64,000 bases of DNA, from the NCBI GenBank assembly GCA_963717115.1, contig CAVQVO010000002.1:640497-704496 (forward strand), read 5' to 3'. Below the pieces are notes generated by a model that worked only from the letters and a program-made list of their open reading frames with translations, made no database searches and was not told the DNA's origin. The stretch is from an uncultured Acidimicrobiales bacterium (GTDB taxonomy: Bacteria > Actinomycetota > Acidimicrobiia > Acidimicrobiales > SZUA-35). Shown in pieces: positions 1,426 to 28,121 of this stretch. Each line of letters begins with the position of its first letter. The stretch's first letter is position 1. The position numbers were made by a program, and so were the translations under genes.

Positions 1426-1449
1426 CGAACGTTTGGATCCGAACGATAC
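1426..1449. promoter_or_regulatory. palindromic operator candidate, copy a (aaCGTTTGGATCCGAACGAT), in the FAH / decarboxylase-like divergent promoter
   Basis: An AT-rich inverted repeat sits in an 81-bp divergent intergenic region. The same motif recurs at 19031 and 28100. It directly abuts a TACTGT -10-like box that ends 6 nt before the ATG at 1459. Confidence 0.5.
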
Positions 1450-1458
1450 TGTCCGGGC

Positions 1459-2280
1459 ATGGCATCGGTCCACGGCTTCATGTTTCCACGCACCGCCACC
1501 GGCGACTCCTCGCTGGTCCCCGCACCGCCGTGGCACTACTCGGGAACGATGCTCACCATCGAGTATCGGACCGATCCGGCCGCCGTCGCCGAACTGCTGC
1601 CCGATCCGCTCGAGCCGGCCGACGACGACCCCGGCGCACTGGCGGTGATCTGGGCCGACTGGCAGAGCTGCAGCGACGGCGGCGAGGAACTGCTCGACCC
1701 CATCCGCAGCCAGTACATGGAGGTGTTCGTCGTCGCCCGCTGCCAGTACCGGGGCGAGCACTTCTCCCGCTGTCTCGCCATCTGGGTCGACCGCGACTAC
1801 GCCATGGTGCGTGGCCATCATCAGGGCTACCCGAAGAAGTTCGGGTCGTGTTTCCTCACCCGCCCGGTCACCGTCGGCAAGGCCGGACCCCGCCTCGCCC
1901 CCGGGGGTCGCTTCGGAGCCACCCTGGCCGCGAACGACCGCCGACTGATCGACGCGACGTTCACGATCACCGGCGAAGCCGACAACGCCGGATTCGTGAA
2001 CGCGCTTCCGATGATCCACAACCGGTGGATGCCGGCGATCGAATCCGACGGAACCGACAGCCTCGACGAACTGGTCACCATGAGCGGCTTCGACGCCGAG
2101 GTCGGCCGGACCTTCACCGGCGACGCCGAACTCCACTTCGGGTCCTCGCCGGTCGAGGAGCTGCAACGCATCGCCCCCCACGAGATCATCGCCGGCTACT
2201 GGCGCGAGGTCGGCGTGTCGTGGAAGCGGGGGACCACGCTCGAACGCATCCTCCCGCCCGCCGTCGCCCCGGGCGACTGA
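1459..2280 (+). CDS. acetoacetate decarboxylase (ADC) family protein
   Basis: This is the in-frame part of ORF 364..2280 starting at MASVHGFMFPRTATGDSSLVPAPPWHYSGTMLTIEYRTD. The PWHY...L.I.Y.TD start and length of about 273 aa fit the ADC-like beta-cone family. The region upstream of 1459 in this frame is arginine-rich junk. Confidence 0.8.
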   Translation: MASVHGFMFPRTATGDSSLVPAPPWHYSGTMLTIEYRTDPAAVAELLPDPLEPADDDPGALAVIWADWQSCSDGGEELLDPIRSQYMEVFVVARCQYRGEHFSRCLAIWVDRDYAMVRGHHQGYPKKFGSCFLTRPVTVGKAGPRLAPGGRFGATLAANDRRLIDATFTITGEADNAGFVNALPMIHNRWMPAIESDGTDSLDELVTMSGFDAEVGRTFTGDAELHFGSSPVEELQRIAPHEIIAGYWREVGVSWKRGTTLERILPPAVAPGD

Positions 2281-2286
2281 CCGGCG

Positions 2287-2808
2287 ATGCCGACCGGGTT
2301 CTCGTCGAGCGACAGCGACGACCTCATCGCCGCCGAGCGACAGGTCCGGGCCAGCATCGGCGACCTCGAGCTCGATGTCGACTCGCTGGCCGCGGTGTCG
2401 AACATCTTCCGGGTTGCCAACGTGGTGCGATACCACATGGAGCGTCACGTGCTCGCCGAGCGCGACCTGTCGTTCACCGCCTTCACCACGCTCTGGGTCG
2501 TGTGGGTCTGGGGGGAACGCGAGGCCCGCCACCTCGCCACCGAGGCCGGCATCTCGAAGGGCACGCTGACCGGCGTCGTCACGACTCTCGAACGACGGGG
2601 CCTGGTGGAACGACGAACCCACCCCGACGACAAGCGCCTCGTGCTGATCGATGCCACCGACCTCGGTCGGCGCACCATGGTGGACCTGTTTCCCGAGTTC
2701 AATCGAGAAGAAGCCCGGGTGACCGCCGACCTGTCGGCCGCACAGAAGCAGGCACTGGCCTCGAGCCTCCGGGTCATCCTGCGAACACTCGAAGGAGAGA
2801 CGGCATGA
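2287..2808 (+). CDS. MarR family transcriptional regulator
   Basis: This is a 173-aa ORF with a winged-helix segment LATEAGISKGTLTGVVTTLERRGLVERRTHPDDKRLVLIDATDLG. Its stop overlaps the next start (ATGA at 2805). Confidence 0.9.
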   Translation: MPTGFSSSDSDDLIAAERQVRASIGDLELDVDSLAAVSNIFRVANVVRYHMERHVLAERDLSFTAFTTLWVVWVWGEREARHLATEAGISKGTLTGVVTTLERRGLVERRTHPDDKRLVLIDATDLGRRTMVDLFPEFNREEARVTADLSAAQKQALASSLRVILRTLEGETA

Positions 2809-4283
2809 ACACGACTCCGGATCCCGCAGACGTCCGGGTCGAGATCGAGGGCATCTCGGTCTCGACGCTGCATCTCATCGGTGGTCGGCGGCTGGCGTCG
2901 TCGTCGACCTTCGAGACCCGATCACCGATGGCGTGGGACACGGTCCTGGCCGACATCGCAGCCGGCGACGCCCACACCGCCGACCTCGCCGTCGGGGCCG
3001 CCGTCGAGGGCTTCGCCGTCTGGTCCGAGACGAGCGCGGCCGACCGCGCCGCGGTCCTCCACCGGCTCGCCGATCTGATCGACGCCAACAACGACGCCAT
3101 CGCCATGGTCGAGACCATCGACATGGGTTTCAAGCATTCGTCGATGCAGCAGCGGCTCGTTGCCCGGGGCGCGGTCAACTTCCGGACCTACGCCGAGCTG
3201 ATCGAGAGCAACGACGACGAACGCTGGTCGGCCAAGGGCACCGAGCACGTCGTGCGTCGACGGCCGGCCGGACCCGCCGTCGTGATCACCCCGTGGAACG
3301 CCCCCTTCATGCTGTCGACGTGGAAGGTCGCTCCGGCGCTCGCCGCCGGCAACAGCGTGATCCTCAAACCGGCCGAGTGGTCGCCGCTCTCGGCGTCGCT
3401 GCTCGCCGACCTGAGTGTCGAGGCGGGCTTTCCGCCCGGCGTGTTCAACGTCGTCCAGGGAATCGGTGAGACCGTCGGCCCACCCCTCGTGTCCGATCCA
3501 CGAGTTCGTCGGCTCAGCTTCACCGGTTCACCGGCCACGGCTCGATCGATCGGGCACGCGGCAGCCGAGAACATCGTCCCGTTCACCGCCGAACTCGGCG
3601 GCAAGGGGCCGCTCATCGTGTTCGCCGACGCCGATCTCGAACTCGCCGCCCGGAAGGCCGCCGAGCAGTACGAGGACTCGGGCCAGGTGTGCCTCGCCGG
3701 CACGAGGTTGTTGGTCGAGGCCTCGATCCGAGACGACTTCCTCGAGGTCTTCCGCCGCCTCACCGAGGCCCACGTCCTGGGCGACCCCCGCCATCCCGAC
3801 ACCACCGTGGCGCCTGTGGTCCATCCCGATCACCTGGCATCGATCGCCGCGTTCGTCGACCGGTCGCGGGCCGCCGGCGACAGGATCGTCTGGGGTGGTG
3901 AGCGGGTCGAGGGCTCCCAGCACTACGCCCTCACGCTGATCGAACCGGCGTCGAACGACGCCGAGATCGTGCAGCGCGAGGTCTTCGGACCGGTGCTCAC
4001 CATCCAGACCTTCGAGGGCGACGACGAGGCCGTTGCCCTCGCCAACTCGACCGACTACGGCCTGTCGGCCCTGATCTTCACCACGTCGCGACGACGGGCC
4101 GAGCAGGTCGGCAGCCGGATCCGTTGCGGCATCGTCTGGGTCAACACCTTCCTGATCCGTGACCTGACCGCCCCGTTCGGGGGTGTCGGCATCTCGGGCA
4201 TCGGTCGCGAGGGCGGCCAGTACGCGCTCGAGTTCCACGCCGACCTGCAGACCATGGTGATCCTCGACGACACGACGAGCTGA
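2805..4283 (+). CDS. NAD(P)-dependent aldehyde dehydrogenase (hydroxymuconic-semialdehyde-DH-like)
   Basis: This is the in-frame part of ORF 1212..4283 starting at MNTTPDPADV. ALDH motifs are present: ITPWNAPF, ELGGKGP, and the catalytic Cys context EDSGQVCLAGTR. Confidence 0.92.
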   Translation: MNTTPDPADVRVEIEGISVSTLHLIGGRRLASSSTFETRSPMAWDTVLADIAAGDAHTADLAVGAAVEGFAVWSETSAADRAAVLHRLADLIDANNDAIAMVETIDMGFKHSSMQQRLVARGAVNFRTYAELIESNDDERWSAKGTEHVVRRRPAGPAVVITPWNAPFMLSTWKVAPALAAGNSVILKPAEWSPLSASLLADLSVEAGFPPGVFNVVQGIGETVGPPLVSDPRVRRLSFTGSPATARSIGHAAAENIVPFTAELGGKGPLIVFADADLELAARKAAEQYEDSGQVCLAGTRLLVEASIRDDFLEVFRRLTEAHVLGDPRHPDTTVAPVVHPDHLASIAAFVDRSRAAGDRIVWGGERVEGSQHYALTLIEPASNDAEIVQREVFGPVLTIQTFEGDDEAVALANSTDYGLSALIFTTSRRRAEQVGSRIRCGIVWVNTFLIRDLTAPFGGVGISGIGREGGQYALEFHADLQTMVILDDTTS

Positions 4284-4476: not shown

Positions 4477-5013
4477 TCAGGCGATGCCCAGCCGTCGGGC
4501 GGCGCGTTCCGCCGCCGCCGGACCGGCGAGCTGACGGAGCAGGAGCAGACCGTCGATGATCGCGACGGTGGTCGCGGCCTCGGTGCGTTGCTCGGTCGGG
4601 GTGCCGTCGAAGAAGCCGCACAGCCAGTCGATCCAGGCATCGACCAGCTGGGGAACCAACGTGGTGTAGGGCTCACGGCCCGCCGCCGCCAGACCGTTGG
4701 CCTCGAAGAAGAGTGCGAAGACCGGATCGGCCTCGGGTCGGGCCAGCACCGGCCATGCGGCCGAGGCCAGCTCCAGATGGTCGCGGACCGGGCCCGTGAA
4801 GGCTGCGGCGAGCATCTCCTGCAACCGGGTACCCATCGTCACGACGACGTGGCCGATCAGGTCGTCCTTGGTGGGGAAGTAGTAGACGACGATCCGATCA
4901 CTGATGCCGAGTCGCTTGGCCAGCCGGCCGAAGGTGAGTTGGCTGAGGCCATCGTCGAAGGCGGCGTCGACGGCACCCTCGAGGATCTGCTCCCTGGTGT
5001 GTTTGTGACCCAT
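4477..5013 (-). CDS. TetR/AcrR family transcriptional regulator
   Basis: The HTH segment is TREQILEGAVDAAFDDGLSQLTFGRLAKRLGISDRIVVYYFPTKDDL. I chose the start at MGHKHT (ATG 5013) because GGAGG lies just upstream. The longer track ORF to 5127 adds a junk leader. Confidence 0.88.
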   Translation of the reverse strand: MGHKHTREQILEGAVDAAFDDGLSQLTFGRLAKRLGISDRIVVYYFPTKDDLIGHVVVTMGTRLQEMLAAAFTGPVRDHLELASAAWPVLARPEADPVFALFFEANGLAAAGREPYTTLVPQLVDAWIDWLCGFFDGTPTEQRTEAATTVAIIDGLLLLRQLAGPAAAERAARRLGIA

Positions 5014-5133: not shown

Positions 5134-6864
5134 ATGACCAAGACCCCCGATCTGCGCATCGACGAGCTCGAGGCGGAGGTTCGACGTCTCGCCACCGACG
5201 TCGATCGGTTGCGGGCCCGCCTCGATGCGACGGAAGGCGACCAGCGGCGCGTGCCACCGCCCCCGCCGCCGTGGGTCGGGCCGTCAACCCTCCCGACTCC
5301 ACCGCCGCCCAGCGGGCAGCCGGCCGGAGCGCAGCAGACGCGACCGCACCGACCGCTGGTCCTCGAGAGCGAGATCGTGCTCAAGTGGGCGGGCGTGGCC
5401 CTCGTCGTGCTCGCCGTGGGCTTCGCGCTCAGCACGGCGATCCGCCGGGGCTGGATCGGCCCCGAACTGCAGCTGGCGGGCGCCATCCTGGTGTCGCTCG
5501 CCATGATCGGCACCGGCTTCCGGCTCTCGTCGACCCGGCCCCTCTGGACCCACGCGCTCTGCTCGGGCGGCGTCGCGGCCTTGTTCACCACGGTGGCTTC
5601 CGACCTGTTCCTCGACCAGACCGGCGACACGACCGCGTTCGTCGGCACGGCGGTCATCGGCCTCGGCGGCTACGTCGTCGCTCGGCTCGCCCGCTCGGAA
5701 TGGGTGGCGGCGGTCAACCTGCTCGGGGCGGTGATCGGCTGGCTCGTCATCGCCGACGGCGAGCTCCCGTTCGTCGCCACCCTGGCGTGGATGGTGGCGT
5801 TGGTCGCCATCGGGCTGGGGTTGTCGCTCGAGCGGGGCTGGTTCGCCCTTCGACTCGTGGCGCACGGCATCGGGCTCGTCGCGGTCGCCATCCTGGCCGA
5901 GGACGCCGCGTCGGTCCTCGAGCAGGTGCTGGTCCTCGGTGCCGCAGCTGCGCTGCTCAGCGGATCACTCGTGCGGCTGCCCAGCATCGGCGATCTGACG
6001 ACGGCGTGGCAGCAGCTCGACGTCCAGCTCGCAGCGGCCGCTGCGCCGTGGGCGTTCGGCGTGATCGTCGTCGCCCTCGACCTCGACGGCGACCGGTTGA
6101 TCGGCGCCGTCGGGATCGCCGTGGCGATCTGGTTCGCGCTGGTCGCCGTCGGCATCCGGGCATGGATCCGACCGGCGCATGTGGTGTCGATCCTGCTCGG
6201 GGCCAGCGTCGGGCTGTCGATCGGTCTGGCCTTCATGCTGTCGACCTCGGCCGCCTACGTGGCCCTCGCCGTCCAGGGCGCAGGACTCGTGATCCTGGCT
6301 CGGGTCCTGGGCGACAACGTTCGGGTCTTCATCAACGCCGCCATCGTCTCGGCGATCGCCGCGCTCTACACCTCGAGCCACATGGTCCAGGCCTGGACGT
6401 TCGACGATTCGATCGGCGACGACATCGCCCACCTGGCGATCATCGCAGCCCTGGCCGTCGCCGGGTGGCAGAGCCGTCACCGTGTGGTCCAGCAGGCCAC
6501 CGCAGCGGCGACCCTGGGTCTGGTGCTGGTCTGGCTCGGGTCGGTCCTGGTGCATCTGCCACAGGGCCAGGGCATCGTCTCGATGAGCTGGGCCGTCATC
6601 GGAGTGATCGTGTTGGTCGCCGGTGCGATTCGCAGGATCCCCGAGATCGCGGCGGCCGGTCTGGCGGTACTGGGCCTCACGGTCGCCAAGCTCCTCACCG
6701 TCGATCTCCAGGAGGTCGACGCCCTGTGGCGGGCCGGGCTCTTCTTCGTCGTCGGGATGGGCATCATGCGGCTGGGCTTCCTCCTGCCCCGGCTCGCCGG
6801 CACGCCCCGGGCCGCAGTCGATGCCCCGGACCTCGAGACCGATGGCGGCGATCAGGCCGTGTGA
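5134..6864 (+). CDS. large polytopic membrane protein (DUF2339-like) with N-terminal coiled-coil and proline-rich linker
   Basis: This is the in-frame part of ORF 4588..6864 starting at MTKTPDLRIDELEAEVRRLATDVDRLRARL. A PPPPPP linker follows, then more than 12 hydrophobic spans. The family assignment is tentative. Confidence 0.7.
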   Translation: MTKTPDLRIDELEAEVRRLATDVDRLRARLDATEGDQRRVPPPPPPWVGPSTLPTPPPPSGQPAGAQQTRPHRPLVLESEIVLKWAGVALVVLAVGFALSTAIRRGWIGPELQLAGAILVSLAMIGTGFRLSSTRPLWTHALCSGGVAALFTTVASDLFLDQTGDTTAFVGTAVIGLGGYVVARLARSEWVAAVNLLGAVIGWLVIADGELPFVATLAWMVALVAIGLGLSLERGWFALRLVAHGIGLVAVAILAEDAASVLEQVLVLGAAAALLSGSLVRLPSIGDLTTAWQQLDVQLAAAAAPWAFGVIVVALDLDGDRLIGAVGIAVAIWFALVAVGIRAWIRPAHVVSILLGASVGLSIGLAFMLSTSAAYVALAVQGAGLVILARVLGDNVRVFINAAIVSAIAALYTSSHMVQAWTFDDSIGDDIAHLAIIAALAVAGWQSRHRVVQQATAAATLGLVLVWLGSVLVHLPQGQGIVSMSWAVIGVIVLVAGAIRRIPEIAAAGLAVLGLTVAKLLTVDLQEVDALWRAGLFFVVGMGIMRLGFLLPRLAGTPRAAVDAPDLETDGGDQAV

Positions 6865-7850
6865 CAGACCGGTGTCCAGTCGAGCACGGCGACGGGATCC
6901 GAATCCGGACGGTGGGCATCGACCCGGACCCGTACCGCTCGGCACCAGCCGCTGCCGACCCGCTGCTCGGCGACGAGGGTGTGCCGGAACGAGAGGGTGT
7001 CGCCTTCGAAGACCGGGGCGAGATGATTGCACGACTGCCAGCCGACGATGGTGGCCAGTCCCCCGAGCACCCGATTCAGCGAGGCCGCCGCCAGCGCGAT
7101 CGCGTGCCCGCCGTAGACCAGCGGGCGATCGTAGGGTGACCGGTCGGCATCGCGGTGGGCGGCGGCGACGTTGTGCGTGATCCGCACCAGGGCGGTGGCC
7201 TGGTCGACCACGTCGCGCAGATCGTCGGCCCGGGTGTCGTCGATCGACCACGAGTCGTGTGGGCCGAGCAGCTCGACGTTCCAGGACGGGTCGATGCCGA
7301 CGACGAACCGTTCGAGATCCAGCTCGGTGTCGGCGGCGCCCAGATCGTCGTGGTGGCCCGGCAGGGTGTCGCTGCGGCACGGCAGCAGCGGGCATCGCTC
7401 GTAGTCGACGAGGACCTCACCCGACGCAGTGGCCACGGTCTGCATGCCGAGCAACACCTTGCCCCGGGGGGCGACACCGGGTTTGGCCGACGCGTCGGCC
7501 ATACCGATCACCCGCGTCGTCGTCTGCAGCGTCTCCCCGACGAACACGGGTCGCCGCACCACGACGTTGCGATAGAAGAGGTTGGCGATGACCCGTTTGG
7601 TGGCCACGGTGCTGGCCCCGACCGCCAGATGCATGACCAGGGTCGAGTTGGCGAGCGGAATGCTCCGCCCGGTCACCGCCCGACACAGCTCGTGATCGAG
7701 CGCCAACCGCTGTCCGTCTCCGGAGATGGCCAGGTAGGTGGCCCCCAGACCCGGATCGATCGTGACCCCCGACGGCACGTCGAACACGTGACCGGGTGTC
7801 AGGTCGTCGTAGAAGGGCCCGTCGGTCGGTCGCTCAGCGTTCGTCGTCAT
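6852..7850 (-). CDS. MaoC-like (R)-hydratase/dehydratase, double hot-dog fold
   Basis: This is the in-frame part of ORF 6852..8183 starting at MTTNAERPTDGPFYDDLTPGHVF. Two hot-dog halves are visible, and YGGHAIALAAA is typical of itaconyl/mesaconyl-CoA-hydratase-like proteins. The start overlaps the GntR stop by 17 nt. Confidence 0.8.
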   Translation of the reverse strand: MTTNAERPTDGPFYDDLTPGHVFDVPSGVTIDPGLGATYLAISGDGQRLALDHELCRAVTGRSIPLANSTLVMHLAVGASTVATKRVIANLFYRNVVVRRPVFVGETLQTTTRVIGMADASAKPGVAPRGKVLLGMQTVATASGEVLVDYERCPLLPCRSDTLPGHHDDLGAADTELDLERFVVGIDPSWNVELLGPHDSWSIDDTRADDLRDVVDQATALVRITHNVAAAHRDADRSPYDRPLVYGGHAIALAAASLNRVLGGLATIVGWQSCNHLAPVFEGDTLSFRHTLVAEQRVGSGWCRAVRVRVDAHRPDSDPVAVLDWTPVCHTA

Positions 7851-8532
7851 CCCAGAATCCCTGTTCCCGCAGCGCGTCGGCGGCTGCGACGCCGCTCTCG
7901 TGGAGGTGGTGTTCCATGGCCAGCCGCGCCGCCTCGCCGTCGCCGTTCCGCAGGGCGCCGAGGATCGCCGCGTGGTGTTCGACGGCGCGGGCGTTCCATC
8001 CGTCGGCGAACTCGTAGTAGTTGGCCGGCACCGATCGCTCGAGGTGACGGAGCAGCCAACGGGTCCGGCGGGGGGCGGCCGAGTTGATGAGGCGGTGGAA
8101 CTCGTGGTTGAGCGCCGAGAGGTCCTCGGTCGACGTCGCGGTGAACCGGGCGTGGACCCGCTCGAGCGCGTCGAGCTCGACATCGCTCATCGTCGAGGCC
8201 GCAAGGGCCGCCGCCCGACCCGACACGACGCCGAAGAGCTCGTAGTGGTCGACGATGTCGGACGGCGTGAGCCGGGCAACGAACGCACCACGGCGAGGGG
8301 TGACATCGAGGAGTCCCTCCTGGCCCAGCACGACCAGCGCCTCCCGAATGGGGCTCCGACTCACGTCGAGGGCCTGCGAAACGGCATCCTGGTCGATCTT
8401 CGCACCGGGCTTGAGTGCGCCGGTGAGGATCAGGTCGCGGATGTACGCGGCGATCTCGTCGGCCAGGCTCCCCCGTCGCCGGATCTCGGGCTCGACGCTG
8501 CGGTAGGGGCTCGCGGGGTCGTCGCTCGTCAC
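7834..8532 (-). CDS. GntR family regulator (FadR-type, FCD C-terminal domain)
   Basis: The winged HTH is LADEIAAYIRDLILTGALKPGAKIDQDAVSQALDVSRSPIREALVVLGQEGLLD, followed by a helical FCD-like domain. The GTG start at 8532 is inferred, because the longer ORF leader is junk. Confidence 0.82.
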   Translation of the reverse strand: MTSDDPASPYRSVEPEIRRRGSLADEIAAYIRDLILTGALKPGAKIDQDAVSQALDVSRSPIREALVVLGQEGLLDVTPRRGAFVARLTPSDIVDHYELFGVVSGRAAALAASTMSDVELDALERVHARFTATSTEDLSALNHEFHRLINSAAPRRTRWLLRHLERSVPANYYEFADGWNARAVEHHAAILGALRNGDGEAARLAMEHHLHESGVAAADALREQGFWDDDER

Positions 8533-8617
8533 GCGATCACCACCGGACCGACCGCGCTCGGACGGGCAGGACGACGCGATCGTCGACCGGGTCGTGCGTT
8601 GTCGGACGCGGCGGCCG

Positions 8618-8836
8618 TCACGACGAGCCGTCCTCCCCCGGTTCGACGATGCCGATCGCACCGCTGGGGCATCGCTCGACGACGAGCTGGGCTTCGTCCC
8701 GCCCGAGCGTCGCCCCCTCGACCACGGTCGAGATGGCGTCGTCGTCGATGAAGAACACGTCGGGCTGGAGCGCCTCGCACTGGCCGATCCCGACGCACAC
8801 GTCGCGGTCGACGGTCACCGTCACTCGGTCGCTCAT
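8618..8836 (-). CDS. small 3Fe-4S/4Fe-4S ferredoxin (P450 redox partner type)
   Basis: This is a 72-aa ORF with the cluster motif CVGIGQCEALQPDVF...RCPSGAI. Its ATG overlaps the P450 stop (ATGA at 8833-8836). Confidence 0.85.
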   Translation of the reverse strand: MSDRVTVTVDRDVCVGIGQCEALQPDVFFIDDDAISTVVEGATLGRDEAQLVVERCPSGAIGIVEPGEDGSS

Positions 8837-10074
8837 GCGGACACCCCCATCCCGACCGAGAGCACTCCGTGGACGAAGTTCGACGGCGCCCGGACCGGTT
8901 CGCCGTCGGGCACCAGGGTCACGCCGGCGGCGAGGAGTTCTTCGAGCAACACCCGGATCTCCATGCGAGCCAGGAAGGCTCCCAGGCAGAAGTGGGAGCC
9001 GCCGCCGCCGAAGGCGACGTGCGGGTTCGGGTCCCGGCCGATGTCGAAGCGGAACGGGTCGTCGAACACGTCGGGATCACGATTGGCCGAGGCGTACCAC
9101 ATGACGACCTTGTCGCCGGCGGCGATCGGGGTCCCGGCGAGTTCGGTGTCGACCGAGGCGGTGCGGCGCATGTGCAGGACCGGGGTGGCCCACCGCAGGA
9201 CCTCCTCGACCGCACGATCCATCAGCTCGGGGTGTTCCCGGAGTCGTCGCAGCTGATCGGGGAACTCGGCGAACGCCATGGCCCCGTGGGTGATCGCCGT
9301 CCGGGTCGTCTCGTTCCCGGCGAACACCAGCACGTGGAAGAGGTTCCGATATTCGGAGTGGCTCAGACGGTCGCCCTCGTGCTCGGCCAGCACCAGCAAC
9401 GTGACGATGTCGTCGCGCGGTTCGAGCCGTCGTTGGATGCCGAGTTGCTCGCCGTATTCGTAGAGGGCGTGGCTCGCCGGGCTTCCGAAGGGCAGCAACC
9501 GGAGTTCGGTCGTGTTCCCGAAGGCGTCGGGCGGGAGTGACGGCCGATCACCGGTCCCCTCGACGAGATAGTTCGACAGCTCCACGAGGTAGTCGGCGTC
9601 CTCGACCGGGACCCCCAGGATCGTGAGGATGACCCGGATCGGCAGCGGCGCCGCCACTCGGTCGACCCAGTCGCCGCCCTCGGCGGCCACGAACTCCTCG
9701 ATCAGCTCCCGGGCGATCGCCCGGGTGGTGTCCTCCCACACGACGATGTTGCGAGGCGTGAAGGCCTTGGAGACGAGCCGACGAAGTCGCGTGTGGTCGG
9801 GGGCATCGGTGTCGATGATGGATCGGCGGGCCTCGAGGGCGTCGGCCTCGAGGTCCCACAGATTGGTGTGGCCGATGCCCGACGAGAAGGTTCCCGCGTC
9901 GGCCGACACCGCCTTGATGTCGGCGTGGCGGGTCACGGCCCAGAAGCCGCCACCCTCGTAGGGATGCCAGACCAGACCGGGACGGGCCCGCATCTCGGCC
10001 ATGGCGTCGTAGGGGATGCCTCGCTCGTAGATCGAGGGGGTCGTCAGATCGACGGCGTCGGTCGTGTCGGTCAT
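8833..10074 (-). CDS. cytochrome P450 (CYP124/125/142-like clan), P450-1
   Basis: The heme loop is FGGGGSHFCLGAFLAR, the I-helix is VFAGNETT and the ExxR is EEVLRW. The start MTDTTDAVD lies at 10074, 1 nt after the upstream gene's stop. Confidence 0.95.
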   Translation of the reverse strand: MTDTTDAVDLTTPSIYERGIPYDAMAEMRARPGLVWHPYEGGGFWAVTRHADIKAVSADAGTFSSGIGHTNLWDLEADALEARRSIIDTDAPDHTRLRRLVSKAFTPRNIVVWEDTTRAIARELIEEFVAAEGGDWVDRVAAPLPIRVILTILGVPVEDADYLVELSNYLVEGTGDRPSLPPDAFGNTTELRLLPFGSPASHALYEYGEQLGIQRRLEPRDDIVTLLVLAEHEGDRLSHSEYRNLFHVLVFAGNETTRTAITHGAMAFAEFPDQLRRLREHPELMDRAVEEVLRWATPVLHMRRTASVDTELAGTPIAAGDKVVMWYASANRDPDVFDDPFRFDIGRDPNPHVAFGGGGSHFCLGAFLARMEIRVLLEELLAAGVTLVPDGEPVRAPSNFVHGVLSVGMGVSA

Positions 10075-10075
10075 G

Positions 10076-11419
10076 TCAGCTGTGCTCCAGGTAGCGGGCC
10101 CGTTCCCAATCGTTGATGTCGTCGCCCTCACCGGCGTGCTCGGCGCCGAGCGCCACTTCGTGGGAGACGATCGATGCGAAGCTCGTCGAGAACACCGAGC
10201 CGAGCTGGTCGGCCAGGGCGCTGCCCTCGAAGGCCGCGAGCGAGGTGGCCAGATCGGTGGGGAGCGGCTCACAGTCACCGGGGTCGGTGTACAGATCGCC
10301 GTCGCGACGGGGGCGAAGGGGGAGGTTCCGTTCGATGCCGTCGCAGCCGGCGGCGAGGAGACCGGCGATCATGAGATAGGGGTTGGCATCGGCACCCGCC
10401 GATCGGAACTCGACCCGGTTGGCCGGCGACCCCGGTTCGACGATGCAGCGGGCCATCACGGTCCGATTGTCGAGTCCCCAATGGATGTGCGTGGGGCAGA
10501 ACGTGTAGGGCCGGACCCGGCGCGGACCGTTGACCGTCGGGGCGCCGAGCACCGCCAGGGCCGAGGCATGTTCCAGCTGACCGGCCAGCCAGTGGGCCAT
10601 GAGCTCGTTGGGCTCGTGCTCGCTGTCGGCGAAGGCATTGCTCCCGCCCCGGCCCCGCAGGCTCGTGTGGATGTGCATGCCCGAGCCCGACTGATCGGCC
10701 CAAGGTTTGGGCATGAACGTCGCTCGCAGGCCGTGGGAACAGGCGACCTGCTTGACGATGCTCTTGAACAGGGCCGTGGAATCGGCCATGGTCATCGCGT
10801 CGGTCGGACCGGTGTTGATCTCGACCTGGCCCGGCCCGTATTCGAGGTTCGACGATTCCACCTCGATCCCGGCTCCGGCCACGGCGTTGCGCATGTCGTG
10901 CAGCACGTCCTCGAGGTCGAGCCGCTGGGTGAGGGAGCTGTACTGGATGTCGGCCATGGCGAACTGCCAGTCGGGCGTGCACAGGTAGAACTCGAGCTCG
11001 GTGGCGACGTAGGGCTCGATCCCGAGCGCCGCGCACCGCTCGACCTGCGCTGCGAGCACGCTGCGGGGGGCGAGCGGATGGAGGTCTCCGTGGTGGTCGA
11101 GGGCATCGGCGAACGCGATCGCGTAGCCCGGCCGGTGGCTGAAGACCCGGGTGGTCGACACGTCGGGTACGAGCTTGCAGTCGAGGTAGCCCGAGTCCAT
11201 GTTGACGAACTCGTTCTCGGGCAGGTCGTTGAGGATGTCGAAGACGAACATCGCGTCGGCGATGTTGACCCCGGCATGGGCCACGGTGGCGAGGAAGCGA
11301 CCGATGGGCACCCGTTTGCCCCGCAGGTGCCCCTGGGTGTCGGGAGCGGCGACCTCGACGGTGTGCACGGCGCCGGTGGTGGCCAGCGTGGCCAGGTGCT
11401 CGAGGGACATCTCGTCCAT
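10076..11419 (-). CDS. glutamine synthetase family protein (gamma-glutamyl-amine ligase type, PuuA/GlnA3-like), GSL-1
   Basis: The start MDEMSLEHL (ATG 11419) follows AAGGAAG. The GS catalytic-domain motifs present are ELEFYL, EYGPGQVEIN, KPWADQSGSGMHIH and NRVEFRSAGADANPYL. Confidence 0.9.
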   Translation of the reverse strand: MDEMSLEHLATLATTGAVHTVEVAAPDTQGHLRGKRVPIGRFLATVAHAGVNIADAMFVFDILNDLPENEFVNMDSGYLDCKLVPDVSTTRVFSHRPGYAIAFADALDHHGDLHPLAPRSVLAAQVERCAALGIEPYVATELEFYLCTPDWQFAMADIQYSSLTQRLDLEDVLHDMRNAVAGAGIEVESSNLEYGPGQVEINTGPTDAMTMADSTALFKSIVKQVACSHGLRATFMPKPWADQSGSGMHIHTSLRGRGGSNAFADSEHEPNELMAHWLAGQLEHASALAVLGAPTVNGPRRVRPYTFCPTHIHWGLDNRTVMARCIVEPGSPANRVEFRSAGADANPYLMIAGLLAAGCDGIERNLPLRPRRDGDLYTDPGDCEPLPTDLATSLAAFEGSALADQLGSVFSTSFASIVSHEVALGAEHAGEGDDINDWERARYLEHS

Positions 11420-17771: not shown

Positions 17772-19019
17772 TCACCGGGGCACCACCGTCACCGGCAGGC
17801 GCTTGATCCCGGCGATGAAGTTCGACCGCAGGCGCGCCTCGTCCCCGGTCTGTTCCACCGACTCGATCCGCTCGAGGAACTCCTGGAGGGTGACGCGCAG
17901 CTCCATGCGGGCCAGCCAGGCCCCGAGGCACAGATGGGGTCCGCCCCGACCGAAGGCCATGTGATCGTTCGGGGTCCGTCGCAGGTCGAGCTCGTACGGG
18001 CGATCGAACTGGTCCTCGTCGAAGTCACCGGAGATGAAGTAGGTCACGACCTTGTCTCCGGCTGCGATCTTCTGACCCCGCAGCTCGACGTCGGTGGTCG
18101 CGGTCCGGCGGAAGTGCATCGTCACGGTGGTCCAGCGCAGCAGCTCGTCGATGGCGACGTTCCACTCCTCGGTCGACGCGTTCTGGAGCTGGGCGATGAG
18201 GTGCGGACGATCCATCAACGCCTTCAGGCTCCCCGCCATGGTGTAGCGGGTGGTGTCGTTGCCGGCGGCGACGAGGAGGGCGAAGAAGTTGTTGAATTCG
18301 TGCTCGGTGAGCTGCGACCCGTCGGTGGTGGTGGCGAGCAGCTGGGAGATGATGTCCTCGGTGGGGTCGGTGCGGCGCAGCGCGGCCTGCTGCCGGGCGT
18401 AGTCGAAGAGGGCATGGCCCGCCGGCGACCGGAACGGCATCATCCGATACTCGTCGGTGTCGGCCTGGTCGACGACGAAATCGGTGAAGTCGGGATCGCT
18501 GTTGCCGAGCAGTGCATCACCCAGCTCGACCAGCATGGGGCCATCGGCGTCGGGCGTACCCATCAACCGTCCGAGCATTCGCATCGGCAACTGCTTGGCG
18601 ACGGCCTCGACGAAGTCGAACGATCCCAGCGCCACGGCGTCGGCGGCGACCTCGGCGGCGAGCTCGCGGATCTGGTCTTCGTAGGCCTCGACCCGCTGAC
18701 GGGTGAAGCCCCGGCTCACCAGCCGGCGCAACCGGGTGTGCGACGGCGGGTCGTGTTCCATCATCGTGCGCCGCGCCTCGGTCTCCTCGGGCGTCATCTC
18801 CTCGAGCCGGATCCCCTGGGTCGAGGTGAACGTCGCGACGTCGCGGCTGACGTCGATGATGTCGCGGTACTTCGTGATGGCCCAGAAACCCGACCCGTCG
18901 GTCTCGTCGATCCACGAGACCGGGGCCTCGGCCCGCAGTCGTCGGAACTCGTCGTGTGGGACGCCGTCGACATAGGTGTCGTGTGCGGTGAGGTCGATCG
19001 ATGTGGTTTCCCCCGGCAT
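17772..19019 (-). CDS. cytochrome P450 (CYP124/125/142-like clan), P450-2
   Basis: The start is MPGETTSIDL. The heme loop is FGRGGPHLCLGAWLAR, the I-helix is VAAGNDTT and the ExxR is DELLRW. Confidence 0.95.
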   Translation of the reverse strand: MPGETTSIDLTAHDTYVDGVPHDEFRRLRAEAPVSWIDETDGSGFWAITKYRDIIDVSRDVATFTSTQGIRLEEMTPEETEARRTMMEHDPPSHTRLRRLVSRGFTRQRVEAYEDQIRELAAEVAADAVALGSFDFVEAVAKQLPMRMLGRLMGTPDADGPMLVELGDALLGNSDPDFTDFVVDQADTDEYRMMPFRSPAGHALFDYARQQAALRRTDPTEDIISQLLATTTDGSQLTEHEFNNFFALLVAAGNDTTRYTMAGSLKALMDRPHLIAQLQNASTEEWNVAIDELLRWTTVTMHFRRTATTDVELRGQKIAAGDKVVTYFISGDFDEDQFDRPYELDLRRTPNDHMAFGRGGPHLCLGAWLARMELRVTLQEFLERIESVEQTGDEARLRSNFIAGIKRLPVTVVPR

Positions 19020-19030
19020 GGGGCGGCATG

Positions 19031-19050
19031 ATAGTTTGGATCCAAACGAT
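19031..19050. promoter_or_regulatory. palindromic operator candidate, copy b (ATAGTTTGGATCCAAACGAT, 19 of 20 self-complementary) in the P450-2 / dioxygenase divergent promoter
   Basis: On the minus strand the motif is followed directly by TATCAT, then 7 nt, then the P450-2 ATG. It therefore overlaps the core promoter. Confidence 0.55.
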
Positions 19051-19133
19051 TGTCGACCGTTTCGGTGTCGACGGTCACAAGTCGCCACACCGGTCGGAAC
19101 ACCGTCGATCGGCCGAAGGGGAAGGTGGAACCC

Positions 19134-20006
19134 ATGGGGGAGATCATCGGGGTCGGACTCGTGTCGCACGTACCCACGATCATGTTGGCGCCCGAGATCC
19201 GGCGCGAGCTCAACGACGGCAACGAGATCAGCCTCGTCCCCGGCCTGCACCGGCTGAAGTCCGAGGTGCTCGATCGACTGCAGCCCGACACGATCGTCGT
19301 CCTCGACACCCACTGGGCCTCGACCGTCGAGGTGCTCGTGACCGCCCAGCCTCGACGTCGGGGCCTCTACACGTCCGAGGAACTCCCGAGAGGGATGGCG
19401 TCGGTGCCCTACGACCTCCCCGGCGATCCCGACCTGGCCCGTGCCTTCGCCGAGGAGGTCTGCGCCGACGGATCGTGGGCGACCGCCGTCGACGACGAGC
19501 ACCTCCCGATCCACTATCCGATCGTCAACCTGGCCCACTACCTCCAGGGACCCGAGCGGTGGATGGGTATCGCCACGGTGCAGACCGGCGAGACCGACGA
19601 CTTCCTGCTGTTCGGTCGTGCCCTGCACCGAGCCGTCGAGCGCAGCGACCGCCGGGTCGTGGTCCTCGCGTCAGGCGGGATGAGCCACCGGTTCTGGCCC
19701 CTGCGTCAGCTCCGCGATCACGAGGCGTCGGATCCGGTGCACCTGCGCTCTCCCGAGGCTCGGGCCGCCGACGAACTCCGGCTCGAGTGGATGCGCGCCG
19801 GCGACCACCGTTCCGTCATCGACACCATGGCCGAGTACTCGGCCTTCGCCCCGGAGGGTCGCTTCGGGCACTACCTGACCATGATCGCCGCCGTTGGGGG
19901 CCCCGACTGCCGGGCGCCGGGCACGATGTTCAGCGACTACGAGAACTCGGTGGGCACGGGTCAGGTCCACGTGTGGTTCGACCGCCCCGAGTCCGGCTGG
20001 GTCTGA
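19134..20006 (+). CDS. class III extradiol ring-cleavage dioxygenase (LigB / catalytic subunit B family)
   Basis: The start MGEIIGVGLVSHVPTIM follows GAAGGTGG. The features LDTHW, ASGGMSH and a length of about 290 aa fit the LigB family. Confidence 0.8.
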   Translation: MGEIIGVGLVSHVPTIMLAPEIRRELNDGNEISLVPGLHRLKSEVLDRLQPDTIVVLDTHWASTVEVLVTAQPRRRGLYTSEELPRGMASVPYDLPGDPDLARAFAEEVCADGSWATAVDDEHLPIHYPIVNLAHYLQGPERWMGIATVQTGETDDFLLFGRALHRAVERSDRRVVVLASGGMSHRFWPLRQLRDHEASDPVHLRSPEARAADELRLEWMRAGDHRSVIDTMAEYSAFAPEGRFGHYLTMIAAVGGPDCRAPGTMFSDYENSVGTGQVHVWFDRPESGWV

Positions 20007-21578: not shown

Positions 21579-22261
21579 GCGAGGTGCTCGGCCAGTCCGG
21601 CCCGGATGTGGTCGACGATCGCGGCGTGGGCCTCGTCGGGATCGCCGGCGGCGATGGCCTCGACGAGGCCGAGATGATCGGCCTCGAGCGTCGCCTGGAC
21701 GTCCACGGGGAACGTCTGGCTGTAGGCGAACAGCGCGAGCGTGGCGCCCCAGAGCGAATCGAACGCCGCGAGCAACGGTCGGTTGCCGCTCTGTTCGACG
21801 AACGCCCGGTGCACCCGCCGGTTGGCGACGTAGGCGGCCGTCGTCGCCGAGTCGTCGGCGGCCGCAGCGATCGCCACCCGGATCCGCTCGACCCGTCGCT
21901 CGAGGTCGGGTGACGCGCAGAGCAGGCGGACCGAGTGCCCCTCGATGGCCTCCCGGGCCTGATAGAGCTCGACCACCTCGCGGGTCCCGACCGTTCGCAC
22001 CTCGTAGCCCCGGCGGCCGGCCGGCTCGACGAGTCCTTCGGACTCGAGCCGCAGCAGGGCATCTCGGACCGGGGTGCGCGACACGTCGAACGCCTCGGCC
22101 AACTGGTCCATCACCAGCCGGTCACCGGGCGCGATCCGCCGTTCGAGGACCGCCTCGACGAGTGCGTCGTAGACCTGGTGGGCGAGGGTCGGACGGCCGG
22201 CGTCGAGCGGGGTCACATCGATCAGGGATCCGCCGGATCGACTCGGGAGCTCAGACGACAT
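21575..22261 (-). CDS. GntR family regulator (FCD domain)
   Basis: The start is MSSELPSRS (ATG 22261). The HTH is LAHQVYDALVEAVLERRIAPGDRLVMDQLAEAFDVSRTPVRDALLRLESEGLV. It overlaps both neighbouring genes. Confidence 0.85.
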   Translation of the reverse strand: MSSELPSRSGGSLIDVTPLDAGRPTLAHQVYDALVEAVLERRIAPGDRLVMDQLAEAFDVSRTPVRDALLRLESEGLVEPAGRRGYEVRTVGTREVVELYQAREAIEGHSVRLLCASPDLERRVERIRVAIAAAADDSATTAAYVANRRVHRAFVEQSGNRPLLAAFDSLWGATLALFAYSQTFPVDVQATLEADHLGLVEAIAAGDPDEAHAAIVDHIRAGLAEHLA

Positions 22262-23444
22262 AGCCGTCGCGGGTCTGGGGCAGCCGAGTGTCGAGCAGGC
22301 GAGAGGCGACGACCGTGCGCAGGATCTGTGCCGTTCCGCCGCCGATCGTGAACATGCGGACGTCGCGACACATTCGTTCGAGCGGATTGTTGCGTGAATA
22401 CCCGGCGGCGCCGAACAGCTGGAGCGCGTCGTTGGCGACGTCGATGGCGTTCTCGGCGGTGAAGATCTTCGCCTGAGCCGCCAGGGTCGGGTCGGGAAAG
22501 GCGCTGCCATCGGGGCCACGGGACTCCGCAGCCCGGTAGGTGAGGCTCCGGGCGGCCTCGAGTCGAGTGCTCATGTCGGCCAACATCCACTGCAGACCCT
22601 GGAACTCGGCGATCGGACGACCGAACTGCTCGCGCTGTTTCGTGAACGCCAGCGCCTGCTCGTAGGCCCCGGTGGCGATCCCGAGGGCGACGGTTCCGGC
22701 GCCGACCCGTTGGGCGTTGTACGCGTTCATCAGATCGGCGAATCCCCGTCGGAACCCCGAGGGCGGCAACAGCACCATGTCGGCGCCGACGTGGAGGTCG
22801 TCGAAGAACACCTCGGTCTCGGGAATGCCCCGCAGACCCATCGTCGGCTCCCGCCGACCGATCCGCAGCCCCTCGGTCTCGTCGCGGATCGCGAGGAAGC
22901 CGCCGAGACCGAGCTCGGCTCCCGCCTCGTCGAAGACGCGAGCGAAGATCAGGTGCAGACGCGACACCCCTCCCCCGGTGATCCAGTGTTTCCGGCCGTT
23001 GATGACGTAGCCGTCTCCCACCCGATCGGCCCGCGTGGTCATCTGCGAAGCCGCCGAACCGGCGTCGGGCTCGGTGATACAGATCGCCGGCTTGTCGCCG
23101 GACAGGACGTACGACGCCGCCAGCCGTCGTTGGTCGTCGGTTCCGTAGGCGAGGATGGCGGAGACGGCCCCCATGTTGGCCTCGACGGCGATCCGTCCGG
23201 TGACGCCGCACACCTTCGCCATCTGCTCGACGACGAGCACGGCATCGAGCAGGGAGTGGCCAGGCCCCCCGAGCTCGGGTGGGACGCACATGCCCGTGAA
23301 CCCGGCCTCCTGCAGCGCCGCGACGTTGTCCCACGGATACTGCTCGGTGCGGTCGACCTCGGCCGCTCGCGGCGCGATCACCCGATCGGCGAGTTCGGCG
23401 GCCCGGGCCTGCAGGGCGAGTTGTTCGTCGGTGAGTTGCCACAT
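22251..23444 (-). CDS. acyl-CoA dehydrogenase
   Basis: This is a 397-aa ORF with the motifs ICITEPDAGSAAS, WITGGG and QFGRPIAEFQGLQWMLADM. Confidence 0.95.
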   Translation of the reverse strand: MWQLTDEQLALQARAAELADRVIAPRAAEVDRTEQYPWDNVAALQEAGFTGMCVPPELGGPGHSLLDAVLVVEQMAKVCGVTGRIAVEANMGAVSAILAYGTDDQRRLAASYVLSGDKPAICITEPDAGSAASQMTTRADRVGDGYVINGRKHWITGGGVSRLHLIFARVFDEAGAELGLGGFLAIRDETEGLRIGRREPTMGLRGIPETEVFFDDLHVGADMVLLPPSGFRRGFADLMNAYNAQRVGAGTVALGIATGAYEQALAFTKQREQFGRPIAEFQGLQWMLADMSTRLEAARSLTYRAAESRGPDGSAFPDPTLAAQAKIFTAENAIDVANDALQLFGAAGYSRNNPLERMCRDVRMFTIGGGTAQILRTVVASRLLDTRLPQTRDGYVV

Positions 23445-26195: not shown

Positions 26196-26227
26196 GCGGT
26201 CTCCTCTCGGCTGTCGGCGTTCCGTGT

Positions 26228-26239
26228 TTCGTATACGAA
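26228..26239. promoter_or_regulatory. perfect 12-bp palindrome TTCGTATACGAA in the 57-bp TPR / SDR divergent intergenic region
   Basis: I read this directly. It is AT-rich in a GC-rich background and centred between two divergent starts. Confidence 0.4.
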
Positions 26240-26252
26240 CGAACCCTAGGAT

Positions 26253-27143
26253 GTGTCCCTCGACACCGCAACCGGCAGGATGGGCACCGTGAACCCGTCC
26301 CGAGAACCCGAACCGCCACCCGATCGGCCGGAGCCGAACCCCGGCGATCACCTCCCCGATGTCCCGGTGGCCCTGATCACCGGCGGCGGCAGCGGCATCG
26401 GTGCCGCCGTGGCCCGCGAGTTGGCCGACCGGGGATGGCGGGTCGCCGTCACCGGCCGTCGCCGCGAACCACTCGAGGCCGTGGCGAGCGCCATCGACGG
26501 TCTGGCCATCGCCGGCGACACCACCGATGCCGATTCCGCCCGGTCGGCCGTCGCCGCCACGCTCGAGCGGTTCGGCCGACTCGACGGCCTGGTGCTCAAC
26601 GCCGGGCAGGGTGCCGTTGCCGCCCTCCCCGATCTCGATCCCGACGTGTTCGCCTCGATCCTGGCCACCAACGTCATCGGGGCGGCGATCATGGCGCAGG
26701 CCGCGCTCCCCCATCTGCTCGCGTCGCCTCACCGGGGAGCGATCGTGTCGGTGTCGTCGGTGGCCGGACTGCGGGCGACCCCATCCTCGATCGCCTACTG
26801 CTCGTCGAAGGCGGCGATGATCATGATGACCAACTGCATCGCCCTCGATCACGGACCGGCCGGGCTGCGGGCGAACTCGGTCTGTCCCGGCTGGACCCGC
26901 ACCCCCATGGCCGACGCCGAGATGGACGAACTCGGTCGCTCGATCGCCGCCGATCGGGAGCAGGCTTACGTGGCGGCCACTCGCCACGTCCCGCTGCGCC
27001 GACCGGCGACGGCCGACGAGGTGGCGGCGACGGTCTGCTGGTTGCTCTCACCCGAGTCGTCCTACGTCACCGGAGCGGTGCTCAACGTCGACGGCGGCAG
27101 CATCGGCGTCGACGTCGCGACCACGCTGTTCGGCCCGGCATGA
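26253..27143 (+). CDS. short-chain dehydrogenase/reductase (SDR) family oxidoreductase
   Basis: The cofactor motif is ITGGGSGIGAA and the catalytic motifs are SSVAG...YCSSKAA. The true start may be the ATG at 26280 (MGTVNP). Confidence 0.88.
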   Translation: MSLDTATGRMGTVNPSREPEPPPDRPEPNPGDHLPDVPVALITGGGSGIGAAVARELADRGWRVAVTGRRREPLEAVASAIDGLAIAGDTTDADSARSAVAATLERFGRLDGLVLNAGQGAVAALPDLDPDVFASILATNVIGAAIMAQAALPHLLASPHRGAIVSVSSVAGLRATPSSIAYCSSKAAMIMMTNCIALDHGPAGLRANSVCPGWTRTPMADAEMDELGRSIAADREQAYVAATRHVPLRRPATADEVAATVCWLLSPESSYVTGAVLNVDGGSIGVDVATTLFGPA

Positions 27144-28108
27144 CGGCCGCCGAGCCCAGCCCGAGGCTGTTGATGATCCTGACCGAGAACCACACCCTCG
27201 TCGATCCGGACGACCTCGAGGGCCTGGTCGAGTTGGCCACCATGGCCGACGACGCCGGGTTCGATGCGGTGATGCTGAGCGAGCACGTTGCGCTCGGCCC
27301 GTCGGCCGACGCCGCCGGACTGCCGTCGAACCCTCGGATGTACGCGGCCCCGGGCAACCAGGACCCCACGATGGCCTGGCCCAGCACCCCGGTGCTCGCC
27401 GGGGCGATCGCCAACGCCACCGATCGGGTGCGGATCGTGCTCGGCGCGCTCATCACACCGTTGCGCCACCCGGTCGCCCTGGCCAAGGACCTGGCAACGC
27501 TCGACCGACTCTCGAACGGCCGCCTCGTCGTGCAACCCACCGTGTCGTGGCACGCCGAGGAATACGCGGCACTCGGGGTGCCCTTCGAGCACCGAGGCCG
27601 CATCCTCGACGAACAACTCGAGGCCATGACCGCGCTGTGGGGAGCCTCACCGGCCAGTCACCACGGGCACCACTTCGACTTCACCGACGTCTACAGCGAA
27701 CCGAAGGCCTTCCGAGCCGAGGGCCCGCACCTGTGGTTCGGGGGTCAGACCCTGCATCGTCGACTGCTCGATCGCCTCGTCCGGCACGGTTCGGGATTCC
27801 ATCCGTTCGGCAGACCGACCGACGCCGACCTGGCGCTGCTGCGCGACGCCCTCCGGGGGGCCGGCCGGGATCCGAGCGGTTTCGAGATGGTCGGTGGCAC
27901 CGATGCGGTGTTCACCGGCCGAGACGACGTCGCCGATCTCGACCTCGCCATGCGCGGGTTCGCCGAACAACTCGAACGGGGTTTCACCACGTTCTGCATG
28001 AAGCCGTCGCAGCACACCGACCGTGTCGACGAGGTGCCCGACCTGTGCCGCCGGATGCTCGACCACGTCGCCGGGCTCGACCGCCCGCCCGAGAGCCTCA
28101 CCGTTTGA
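27140..28108 (+). CDS. luciferase-like monooxygenase (LLM) class flavin/F420-dependent oxidoreductase
   Basis: The start MTAAEPSPRLLMIL overlaps the SDR stop (ATGA). The segments FDAVMLSEHV and LATLDRLSNGRL are typical of LLM TIM-barrel proteins. Confidence 0.82.
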   Translation: MTAAEPSPRLLMILTENHTLVDPDDLEGLVELATMADDAGFDAVMLSEHVALGPSADAAGLPSNPRMYAAPGNQDPTMAWPSTPVLAGAIANATDRVRIVLGALITPLRHPVALAKDLATLDRLSNGRLVVQPTVSWHAEEYAALGVPFEHRGRILDEQLEAMTALWGASPASHHGHHFDFTDVYSEPKAFRAEGPHLWFGGQTLHRRLLDRLVRHGSGFHPFGRPTDADLALLRDALRGAGRDPSGFEMVGGTDAVFTGRDDVADLDLAMRGFAEQLERGFTTFCMKPSQHTDRVDEVPDLCRRMLDHVAGLDRPPESLTV

Positions 28109-28121
28109 CTCCAAACGATCC
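28100..28121. promoter_or_regulatory. palindromic operator candidate, copy c (ACCGTTTGACTCCAAACGATCC), upstream of the ACAD-like / NicX-like / GSL-2 genes
   Basis: This is the same GTTTGgayyCCAAACGAT core as at 1426 and 19031. It lies about 50 nt upstream of the ATG at 28169, next to a TTGACC -35-like hexamer. Confidence 0.5.

Follow-up and report, generated by a model that had tools for sequence, protein, structure and literature searches.

The DNA analysed here (the window) is a stretch of 64,000 nt of contig CAVQVO010000002.1, positions 640,497 to 704,496, from an uncultured Acidimicrobiales bacterium. Its genes were called by codon-position G+C, raw open reading frame (ORF) lists being uninformative at high G+C, and were named with Pfam and NCBIfam. 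The first half of the window carries genes for an extradiol dioxygenase, cytochromes P450, glutamine-synthetase-like (GS-like) enzymes, an aldehyde dehydrogenase (ALDH), transport proteins, and a MarR-family regulator. Three copies of a 20-bp AT-rich palindrome, whose ideal form is ATCGTTTGGATCCAAACGAT, stand before genes of this set (Table 1). The palindrome is probably the operator of the MarR protein, which would repress its own operon together with other operons for aromatic and amine degradation; this reading is drawn from comparative sequence analysis.

Table 1. Predicted operator copies, predicted promoter and genes of the window (mismatches counted against the ideal palindrome; bits from the site matrix; loci are the 80 anchored on MarR homologues).
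Feature	Position	Strand	Sequence or score	Remarks
Predicted operator copy a	1428-1447		AACGTTTGGATCCGAACGAT; 2 mismatches; 26.0 bits	81-bp divergent FAH / ADC-like region
Predicted operator copy b	19031-19050		ATAGTTTGGATCCAAACGAT; 1 mismatch; 32.6 bits	between P450-2 (-) and LigB (+)
Predicted operator copy c	28100-28119		ACCGTTTGACTCCAAACGAT; 3 mismatches; 25.9 bits	luciferase-like stop / ACAD-like gap
Predicted sigma-70-like promoter of P450-2	19028-19056	-	-35 TCGACA 19056-19051; 17-nt spacer; -10 TATCAT 19033-19028
FAH-family gene, HpaG-like	460-1377	-		divergent from operator a; co-occurs with MarR in 48/80 loci
ADC-superfamily gene (MppR/Sbi00515-like)	1459-2280	+	Pfam ADC	first gene after operator a; 45/80 loci
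MarR-family regulator	2287-2808	+		second gene of operator-a operon
Aldehyde dehydrogenase	~2928-4283	+	best match HpaE, below cutoff	start codon uncertain; 57/80 loci
TetR	4477-5013
GntR/FCD protein, first	7834-8532
GntR/FCD protein, second	21575-22216
Genes 3' of P450-2	6852-17621	-		liv-type ABC transporter, ACAD, GS-like 1, P450-1, ferredoxin, GntR, MaoC-like
Cytochrome P450 (P450-2)	17772-19019	-		transcribed from predicted operator-b promoter
LigB-type extradiol dioxygenase	19134-20006	+		divergent from operator b; 48/80 loci
SDR and F420-type luciferase-like genes	26253-28108			upstream of operator c
ACAD-like flavoenzyme	28169-29398	+		downstream of operator c
NicX-like protein, 357 aa	29409-30482	+		orthologue called PF26233 NicX
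Glutamine-synthetase-like enzyme	30565-31830	+		downstream of operator c

An earlier note on this DNA had described three copies of the palindrome, all of them intergenic and AT-rich on a GC-rich background. A search of the whole window with the ideal form at up to three mismatches gave exactly these three copies, and none of 100 dinucleotide-preserving shuffles had any match. Markov-1 simulations (n = 100) gave zero matches at up to four mismatches and 0.08 per window at five, and the window's own matches with six or seven mismatches are at background frequency. The motif has a G+C content of 40-45% vs ~69% throughout the window. Copies a and b are wholly intergenic, the first flanked by the FAH start (1377) and the ADC-like start (1459) and the second by the P450 start (19019) and the LigB start (19134). 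Copy c is only partly intergenic; the F420-type luciferase-like gene has its TGA stop (28106-28108) inside it. Its true end is 28119, 2 nt before the 28121 given previously. The ACAD-like gene has its ATG 49 nt downstream of copy c. A scan with the matrix described below found no sites in the other 32 kb of the window.

Operators that lie in the spacer and -10 box of a promoter are in the classical repressor position. Copy b fills the 17-nt spacer of the predicted P450-2 promoter, and its last three bases double as the start of the -10 box. The promoter scan matched 10 of the 12 box positions (0.0 expected in shuffles). Copy b ends 11 nt before the P450 ATG, and the -10 box ends 8 nt before that start codon, which suggests that the mRNA from this predicted promoter is leaderless or near-leaderless. 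Copy a also ends 11 nt before an ATG, that of the ADC-like gene, and the ATG of the divergent FAH gene is 50 nt away. A -10-like GATACT (1445-1450) overlaps the last 3 nt of copy a. Copies a and b can be aligned base for base to their start codons (34 nt each), with GATACT in a replacing TATCAT in b. The overlap of operator and -10 box (AAAC-TATCAT) is kept in five genomes while the flanks diverge.

Homologues of the MarR protein were used to anchor 80 loci (1.53 Mb; one genome per species). They include an Acidimicrobiales metagenome-assembled genome (MAG) at 91% identity and relatives at ~45-60% in Streptomyces, Kitasatospora, Nocardioides, Nanopelagicales, and other Actinomycetota. These loci gave ~95 motif-like sites vs ~2 expected in a crude mismatch scan. 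An iterated, symmetrised 26-nt matrix built from the same loci, with a site threshold of at least 18 bits, gave 182 sites vs about 0-2 expected, and 174 of the 182 are intergenic, in loci that are 87% coding by the gene calls; enrichment in intergenic regions had been proposed as a check on the motif, and these related loci have it. Simulated sequence gave 0.07 matches per 64 kb at 15 bits or more. The matrix consensus is aTCGTTtGG-nn-CCaAACGAt, with T5, T6, A15, and A16 invariant, G8 and C13 nearly invariant, and the central two positions free. Of the 71 loci with a callable MarR gene, 61 have a site of at least 15 bits within the 300 bp preceding that gene. The genes upstream of MarR vary among the site-bearing loci (F420-type oxidoreductase, FAH, P450, and unrelated genes). 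Peptidase_C26 (52 loci) and luciferase-like (27 loci) genes are kept as MarR neighbours along with the ALDH, FAH, LigB, and ADC-like genes counted in Table 1. Directly behind the sites are genes for an APC amino-acid permease (43 loci; start 28-32 nt from the site), a GAF-LuxR regulator (21), luciferase-like proteins (21), a sugar-type binding protein (20), ALDH (17), GS-like enzymes (9), and GATase (6), as well as ADC-like and P450 genes.

Some of these loci have features of their own. In Streptomyces (within L007-L080; e.g., L052 at 7844, 12762, and 14307), the motif also precedes genes for the APC permease, the GAF-LuxR regulator, and the sugar-type ABC binding protein, which points to a larger regulon and possibly to a regulatory cascade. 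The relative at 91% (L001, 9754-10000) has a remnant of the first codons of the ADC-like gene, and its operator and promoter are now ~170 nt before MarR; the regulator and site have been kept there and the first structural gene lost. Locus L016 (CALQEM020000003.1) is titled as a Bifidobacterium breve MAG, matches the Nanopelagicales loci L003 and L006 in its cluster and site pattern, and may be mis-binned.

Partial likenesses to the motif also occur elsewhere in the window. A half-site at 17608-17616, which the earlier note had thought a possible coding coincidence, lies within codons 2-5 (T-S-K-R) of the signal peptide of the liv-type binding protein and has no matrix score; it is such a coincidence and was rejected as an operator. 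The sequence ACAATTTGAATACAATAGAC (17668-17687) is in the AT-rich gap upstream of the same gene; it scores 9.7 bits, which is chance level, and its left half is identical to MarR-proximal sites in Streptomyces (ACAATTTGA...). A fourth palindrome at 41916-41935 (GTTGTTCGGATCCGAACCGT, 14 bits) was also rejected as a site, being within coding sequence (LFGSEP) and having a score that chance gives ~0.1-0.3 times per window. Its sequence (GTTCGGATCCGAAC) resembles the motif core and codes for ...ARLFGSEPFDE... just after a Ser/Thr kinase gene, probably by chance.

Orthologues of P450-2, fetched with their flanks, gave a second anchor (L081-L086, 63-95% identity). In L081 (95%), copy b is kept 11 nt before the ATG and copy c is kept between the luciferase-like and ACAD-like genes; L081 is on the same contig as L001, and MarR is ~16 kb away. 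Loci L083 (66%), L084 (71%), and L085 (65%) have four or five sites each. Two divergent regions carry them, that between LigB and P450 and that between ADC-like-MarR and FAH (where the L083 site is 11 nt from the ADC-like start), and others precede ACAD-like/NicX, ALDH, or liv-type binding-protein genes. Sites orthologous to copy a, before ADC/MarR, are found in L001, L083, L085, and L086; L081, L083, L084, and L085 carry the orthologous site between LigB and P450; and sites orthologous to copy c, before ACAD-like/NicX, are in L081, L083, and L084. The ACAD-like/NicX/GS-like trio is behind a site in L083, and liv-type binding-protein genes are behind good sites in L083, L085, and L086. The flanks of the P450-anchored relatives are unalignable, and the operator and overlapping TATCAT are kept. 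Thus the motif is upstream of orthologous operons, where the earlier note had proposed to look for it, in relatives at only 63-71% protein identity. Locus L082, where a 77% P450 orthologue is beside rpsO/pnp, lacks a site, MarR, and all other cluster genes.

Scanning metagenome contigs for the motif alone (ATCGTTTGGNNCCAAACGAT, 18 specified bases) served as a third anchor and returned 35 contigs, 18 of them with cluster genes. MarR homologues (44-57% identity) are encoded on ten of these 18, and the gene typically lies between two sites. No protein of the window or of the loci has a homologue on the other 17 contigs, and eight of these are below 50% G+C; by rough estimate, 17 is about the chance number for 18 specified bases searched in a collection as large as this one. 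The regulator with which the motif travels is the MarR protein, both in these 10 motif-found contigs and in the 61 of 71 loci with an upstream site.

Repeated dyads can also arise as structural or mobile elements, such as repetitive extragenic palindromic (REP) or miniature inverted-repeat transposable element (MITE)-like repeats or hairpin terminators, or here as a by-product of the BamHI-like GGATCC centre. The perfect-dyad sequence and the position of copy c at the 3' end of a gene fit such an origin, which is nevertheless extremely improbable. A terminator scan of all three sites found no terminator-like structure, hairpin, or T-run, and similarity ends at about 26 bp. The central GGATCC is not kept in other genomes, where positions 10-11 are free. 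At copies a and b, the motif is upstream of the inferred transcription start and hence would be outside the RNA, and its placement at orthologous promoters is kept across orders.

GntR operators often show a GT...AC outline. The GT-N10-AC outline of the palindrome had been taken in the earlier note to fit GntR-type operators, and two GntR/FCD proteins and a TetR protein are encoded within the same 30 kb. Binding by one of these three is very unlikely, since neither the GntR nor the TetR genes are conserved with the motif. Homologues of TetR and of the first GntR protein occur in only one of the 80 loci, the near-identical L001, and homologues of the second GntR protein in none. Loci L083-L085, with four or five sites each, have no GntR or TetR gene, and neither GntR-containing operon of the window has a site before it. 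The palindrome TTCGTATACGAA (26229-26240), which is at the promoter of a GntR operon, is a better candidate for GntR binding.

The main residual alternative is an unlinked regulator, such as a global carbon- or nitrogen-responsive factor, that binds the palindrome and has the MarR gene merely as one target. Several observations bear on this alternative or otherwise weigh against the MarR protein as the repressor. Loci L086 (63%; two good sites and no MarR within 10 kb), L087, L094, and L114 have good sites and no MarR on the stretch available, and their regulator must either be encoded elsewhere or be another protein. The GS-like genes of the regulon could in principle be under nitrogen control. 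The 80 loci were selected through MarR, which biases the co-occurrence count, and the independent sets are the P450-anchored and motif-anchored ones only, both of them small. The generic promoter scanner found nothing at copies a and c, where -10-like TAnnnT hexamers were seen by eye and alignment only; the overlap of all copies with promoter boxes described in the earlier note is thus borne out by the scan for copy b alone. Copy c lies upstream of any plausible -10, and repression is less clear-cut there. All pathway enzymes score below the NCBIfam equivalog cutoffs.

An unlinked regulator is still unlikely. No other regulator family recurs in site-bearing loci, and no alternative regulator is common to the site-bearing contigs that lack MarR. 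Sites adjoin the MarR gene in 61 of the 71 loci, often on both sides, and in L083-L085 MarR adjoins the ADC-like gene and is the sole recognisable regulator gene called. Unlike the targets of a global factor, the sites are confined to one gene set, with none in the other half of the window or in L082. The strict dyad and its 10-bp core spacing suit a MarR dimer, as generally seen in MarR-DNA complexes. A common operator of an uncharacterised regulon, with MarR as a candidate regulator, had been put forward earlier and now has the support of the intergenic bias of the sites, their presence at orthologous promoters, and their co-occurrence with MarR.

The MarR protein of the window has the winged-helix domain of its family, with matches to PF01047 (50.4 bits, cutoff 24.6) and PF12802 (37.1 bits, cutoff 27); a 20-bp dyad lies at the predicted -35/-10, and there is a site upstream of the protein's own operon. 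A search of PDB matched 39 MarR-family structures, the best being YetL (1.6e-9); no close structure was found in PDB, and HpaR, PcaV, and CouR match at 1e-4 to 1e-6. The clade comprises more than 1000 clusters at E<=1e-25 and has generic names only in public databases. Among 88 distinct members, the winged-helix region (residues ~60-120, e.g., GISKGTLTGVVTTLERRGLV) is nearly invariant and the termini are variable, which would agree with one operator common to several orders.

From these results we infer binding, repression, a ligand, and a substrate for the MarR protein as follows. The TT/AA cores are 10 bp (one helical turn) apart, and each would receive one recognition helix of a MarR dimer. 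The operator is in the -35/-10 spacer and over the -10 of the predicted P450-2 and ADC-like/MarR promoters, and it lies inside short divergent intergenic regions; bound MarR would thus block RNA polymerase and act as a repressor. With the MarR gene behind operator a, the protein would also repress its own synthesis. As with other MarR repressors in aromatic catabolism, a substrate or intermediate of the pathway may cause release. The predicted regulon has three parts in the window. Operator a would control FAH and, divergent from it, ADC-like/MarR/ALDH. Operator b would control P450-2, perhaps with the downstream ABC transporter and GS-like/P450-1 genes, and the divergent LigB gene, and operator c would control the ACAD-like/NicX-like/GS-like genes. 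The genes at 6852-17621 may be co-transcribed with P450-2 or separately controlled, and their membership in the regulon is presumptive.

PcaV and CouR bind palindromes that lie in promoter regions, control their own synthesis, and respond to a metabolite of their pathway. Like the window protein, PcaV (Streptomyces, protocatechuate; PDB 4fht) and CouR (Rhodococcus, p-coumaroyl-CoA; PDB 6c28) are MarR-family proteins, and they come from the same host phylum; their similarity to the window MarR is distant (E 9e-4 and 7e-6), and the pathways differ. A parallel in gene content is HpaR, the MarR-family repressor of homoprotocatechuate degradation, with the hpa-meta operon of Escherichia coli W and Yersinia (PMC7180172; PDB 7el2), in which a MarR-family gene is also beside a LigB-type dioxygenase, an HpaE-like ALDH, and an HpaG-like FAH. 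The window MarR has HpaR as its best NCBIfam match, and the three enzymes have HpaD, HpaE, and HpaG. The proposed logic is also the same, with repression at the pathway promoter that a compound of the pathway would lift. The window MarR was rejected as HpaR itself, with 45.4 bits vs the cutoff of 121.2 for the TIGR02337 equivalog and an E-value of 1.1e-4 to structure 7el2. In contrast to hpa-meta, the window enzymes are below cutoffs, and the conserved ADC-superfamily enzyme of the cluster may replace the HpaH/HpaI steps. The window-type regulon also adds GS-like, P450, Peptidase_C26, and F420-LLM genes and transporters.

Known gamma-glutamylation systems are controlled by PuuR or LysR-type regulators and are not known to be under a MarR protein. 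The Puu (putrescine), Ipu (isopropylamine, with a P450), and aniline/1-naphthylamine routes (the last in PMC11335346) have counterparts in the window by best match, namely GS-like ligases and class-I amidotransferase/Peptidase_C26 hydrolases near oxygenase and ring-cleavage genes. Window matches to these systems are all below equivalog cutoffs. The 1-naphthylamine route uses a dioxygenase (PMC11335346), whereas the oxygenases of the window are P450s and ACAD-like flavoenzymes. A literature search of incomplete coverage gave no description of this operator sequence, of its regulator, or of GS-like/P450/extradiol clusters. The arrangement of regulator and operator is a textbook one, but the gene set that it defines is widely conserved and unassigned.

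Functional assignment of the regulon genes is based on best matches. Those of the LigB (HpaD_Fe, 127 vs cutoff 316), ALDH (HpaE, 5-carboxymethyl-2-hydroxymuconate semialdehyde dehydrogenase, 444 vs 638), and FAH (HpaG, 192 vs 276) proteins are to enzymes of the homoprotocatechuate type. For the GS-like genes the best match is gamma-glutamylputrescine synthetase (226 and 224 bits vs cutoff 650), and for the Peptidase_C26 gene it is PuuD (96 vs cutoff 266); Gln-synt_C and Peptidase_C26/GATase domains are present in the window proteins. The closest solved structure to LigB is 3,4-dihydroxyphenylacetate 2,3-dioxygenase (6e-20), followed by 2-aminophenol dioxygenases, with PDB 8iq8 among the best matches. 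For the ADC-like protein, the closest are MppR (4jm3, 5e-54) and the ADC-superfamily protein 4zbo (1e-42). A hydratase/aldolase role in the ring-fission pathway is plausible for the ADC-like protein, because aldolase activity is described for MppR and a meta-cleavage route proposed for Saccharolobus includes ADC-superfamily proteins (PMC7820114). Glutamylation of aromatic amines before oxygenation has precedent (PMC11335346). Together, the genes look like an amine funnel (import, gamma-glutamylation, P450 hydroxylation, and hydrolysis) that would feed a homoprotocatechuate-like extradiol route.

A broader proposal, which we regard as possible rather than probable, is that the operator marks one undescribed catabolic pathway kept widely across Actinomycetota (Acidimicrobiales, freshwater Nanopelagicales, Nocardioides, and many Streptomyces). 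An amine-bearing aromatic would be imported, gamma-glutamylated, hydroxylated by P450, deglutamylated, and passed to the LigB route, with an ADC-superfamily enzyme replacing hydratase and aldolase and one MarR sensing the substrate. If so, the motif would allow the whole regulon, and hence the pathway, to be read from any genome. The motif ties recurrent but otherwise unconnected genes for GS-like ligases, P450s, gamma-glutamyl hydrolases, LigB, ADC-superfamily enzymes, F420-type oxidoreductases, and transporters into one putative regulon. Its occurrence in soil Streptomyces, freshwater Nanopelagicales, and uncultured Acidimicrobiales offers a handle for finding the pathway substrate. The matrix can be used for annotating such promoters, and regulator and operator may be useful as a ligand-responsive repressor/operator pair for high-G+C hosts.

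Other features of the window are of separate interest. The second half holds housekeeping genes (phosphoenolpyruvate carboxykinase, riboflavin operon) and no further MarR, and megablast of the first 25 kb against plasmids gave short unrelated matches only. The liv-type substrate-binding gene (16322-17621, minus strand) is frameshifted. Its signal peptide (MTSKRLLAVLCALAMLAAACGG, ATG 17621) is out of frame with the mature domain, the frame switch is in a low-complexity T/D/G-rich linker, and the L081 equivalent is broken into small ORFs; the frameshift is either a sequencing error of long-read MAGs or real decay. A second AT-rich palindrome (26226-26241, with TTCGTATACGAA as its core) lies in the divergent promoter region between the SDR/luciferase-like and the TPR/P450-3/ACAD/GntR/GATase/Peptidase_C26 operons. 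It is single-copy in the window (0.02 expected), is kept in the 95% relative L081 at 2858-2869, and is a candidate operator of the GntR/FCD protein encoded in the TPR/P450-3 operon. An ACAD-family gene (22251-23444, minus strand) passes the NCBIfam equivalog cutoff for 3-sulfinopropanoyl-CoA desulfinase (666 vs 600 bits); this desulfinase-type gene is in the GntR-containing operon, not behind a MarR site. A flavin mononucleotide (FMN) riboswitch (RF00050, 110.6 bits) lies at 47717-47847 on the plus strand, upstream of the ribD/ribE/ribBA/ribH operon (48020-51379).

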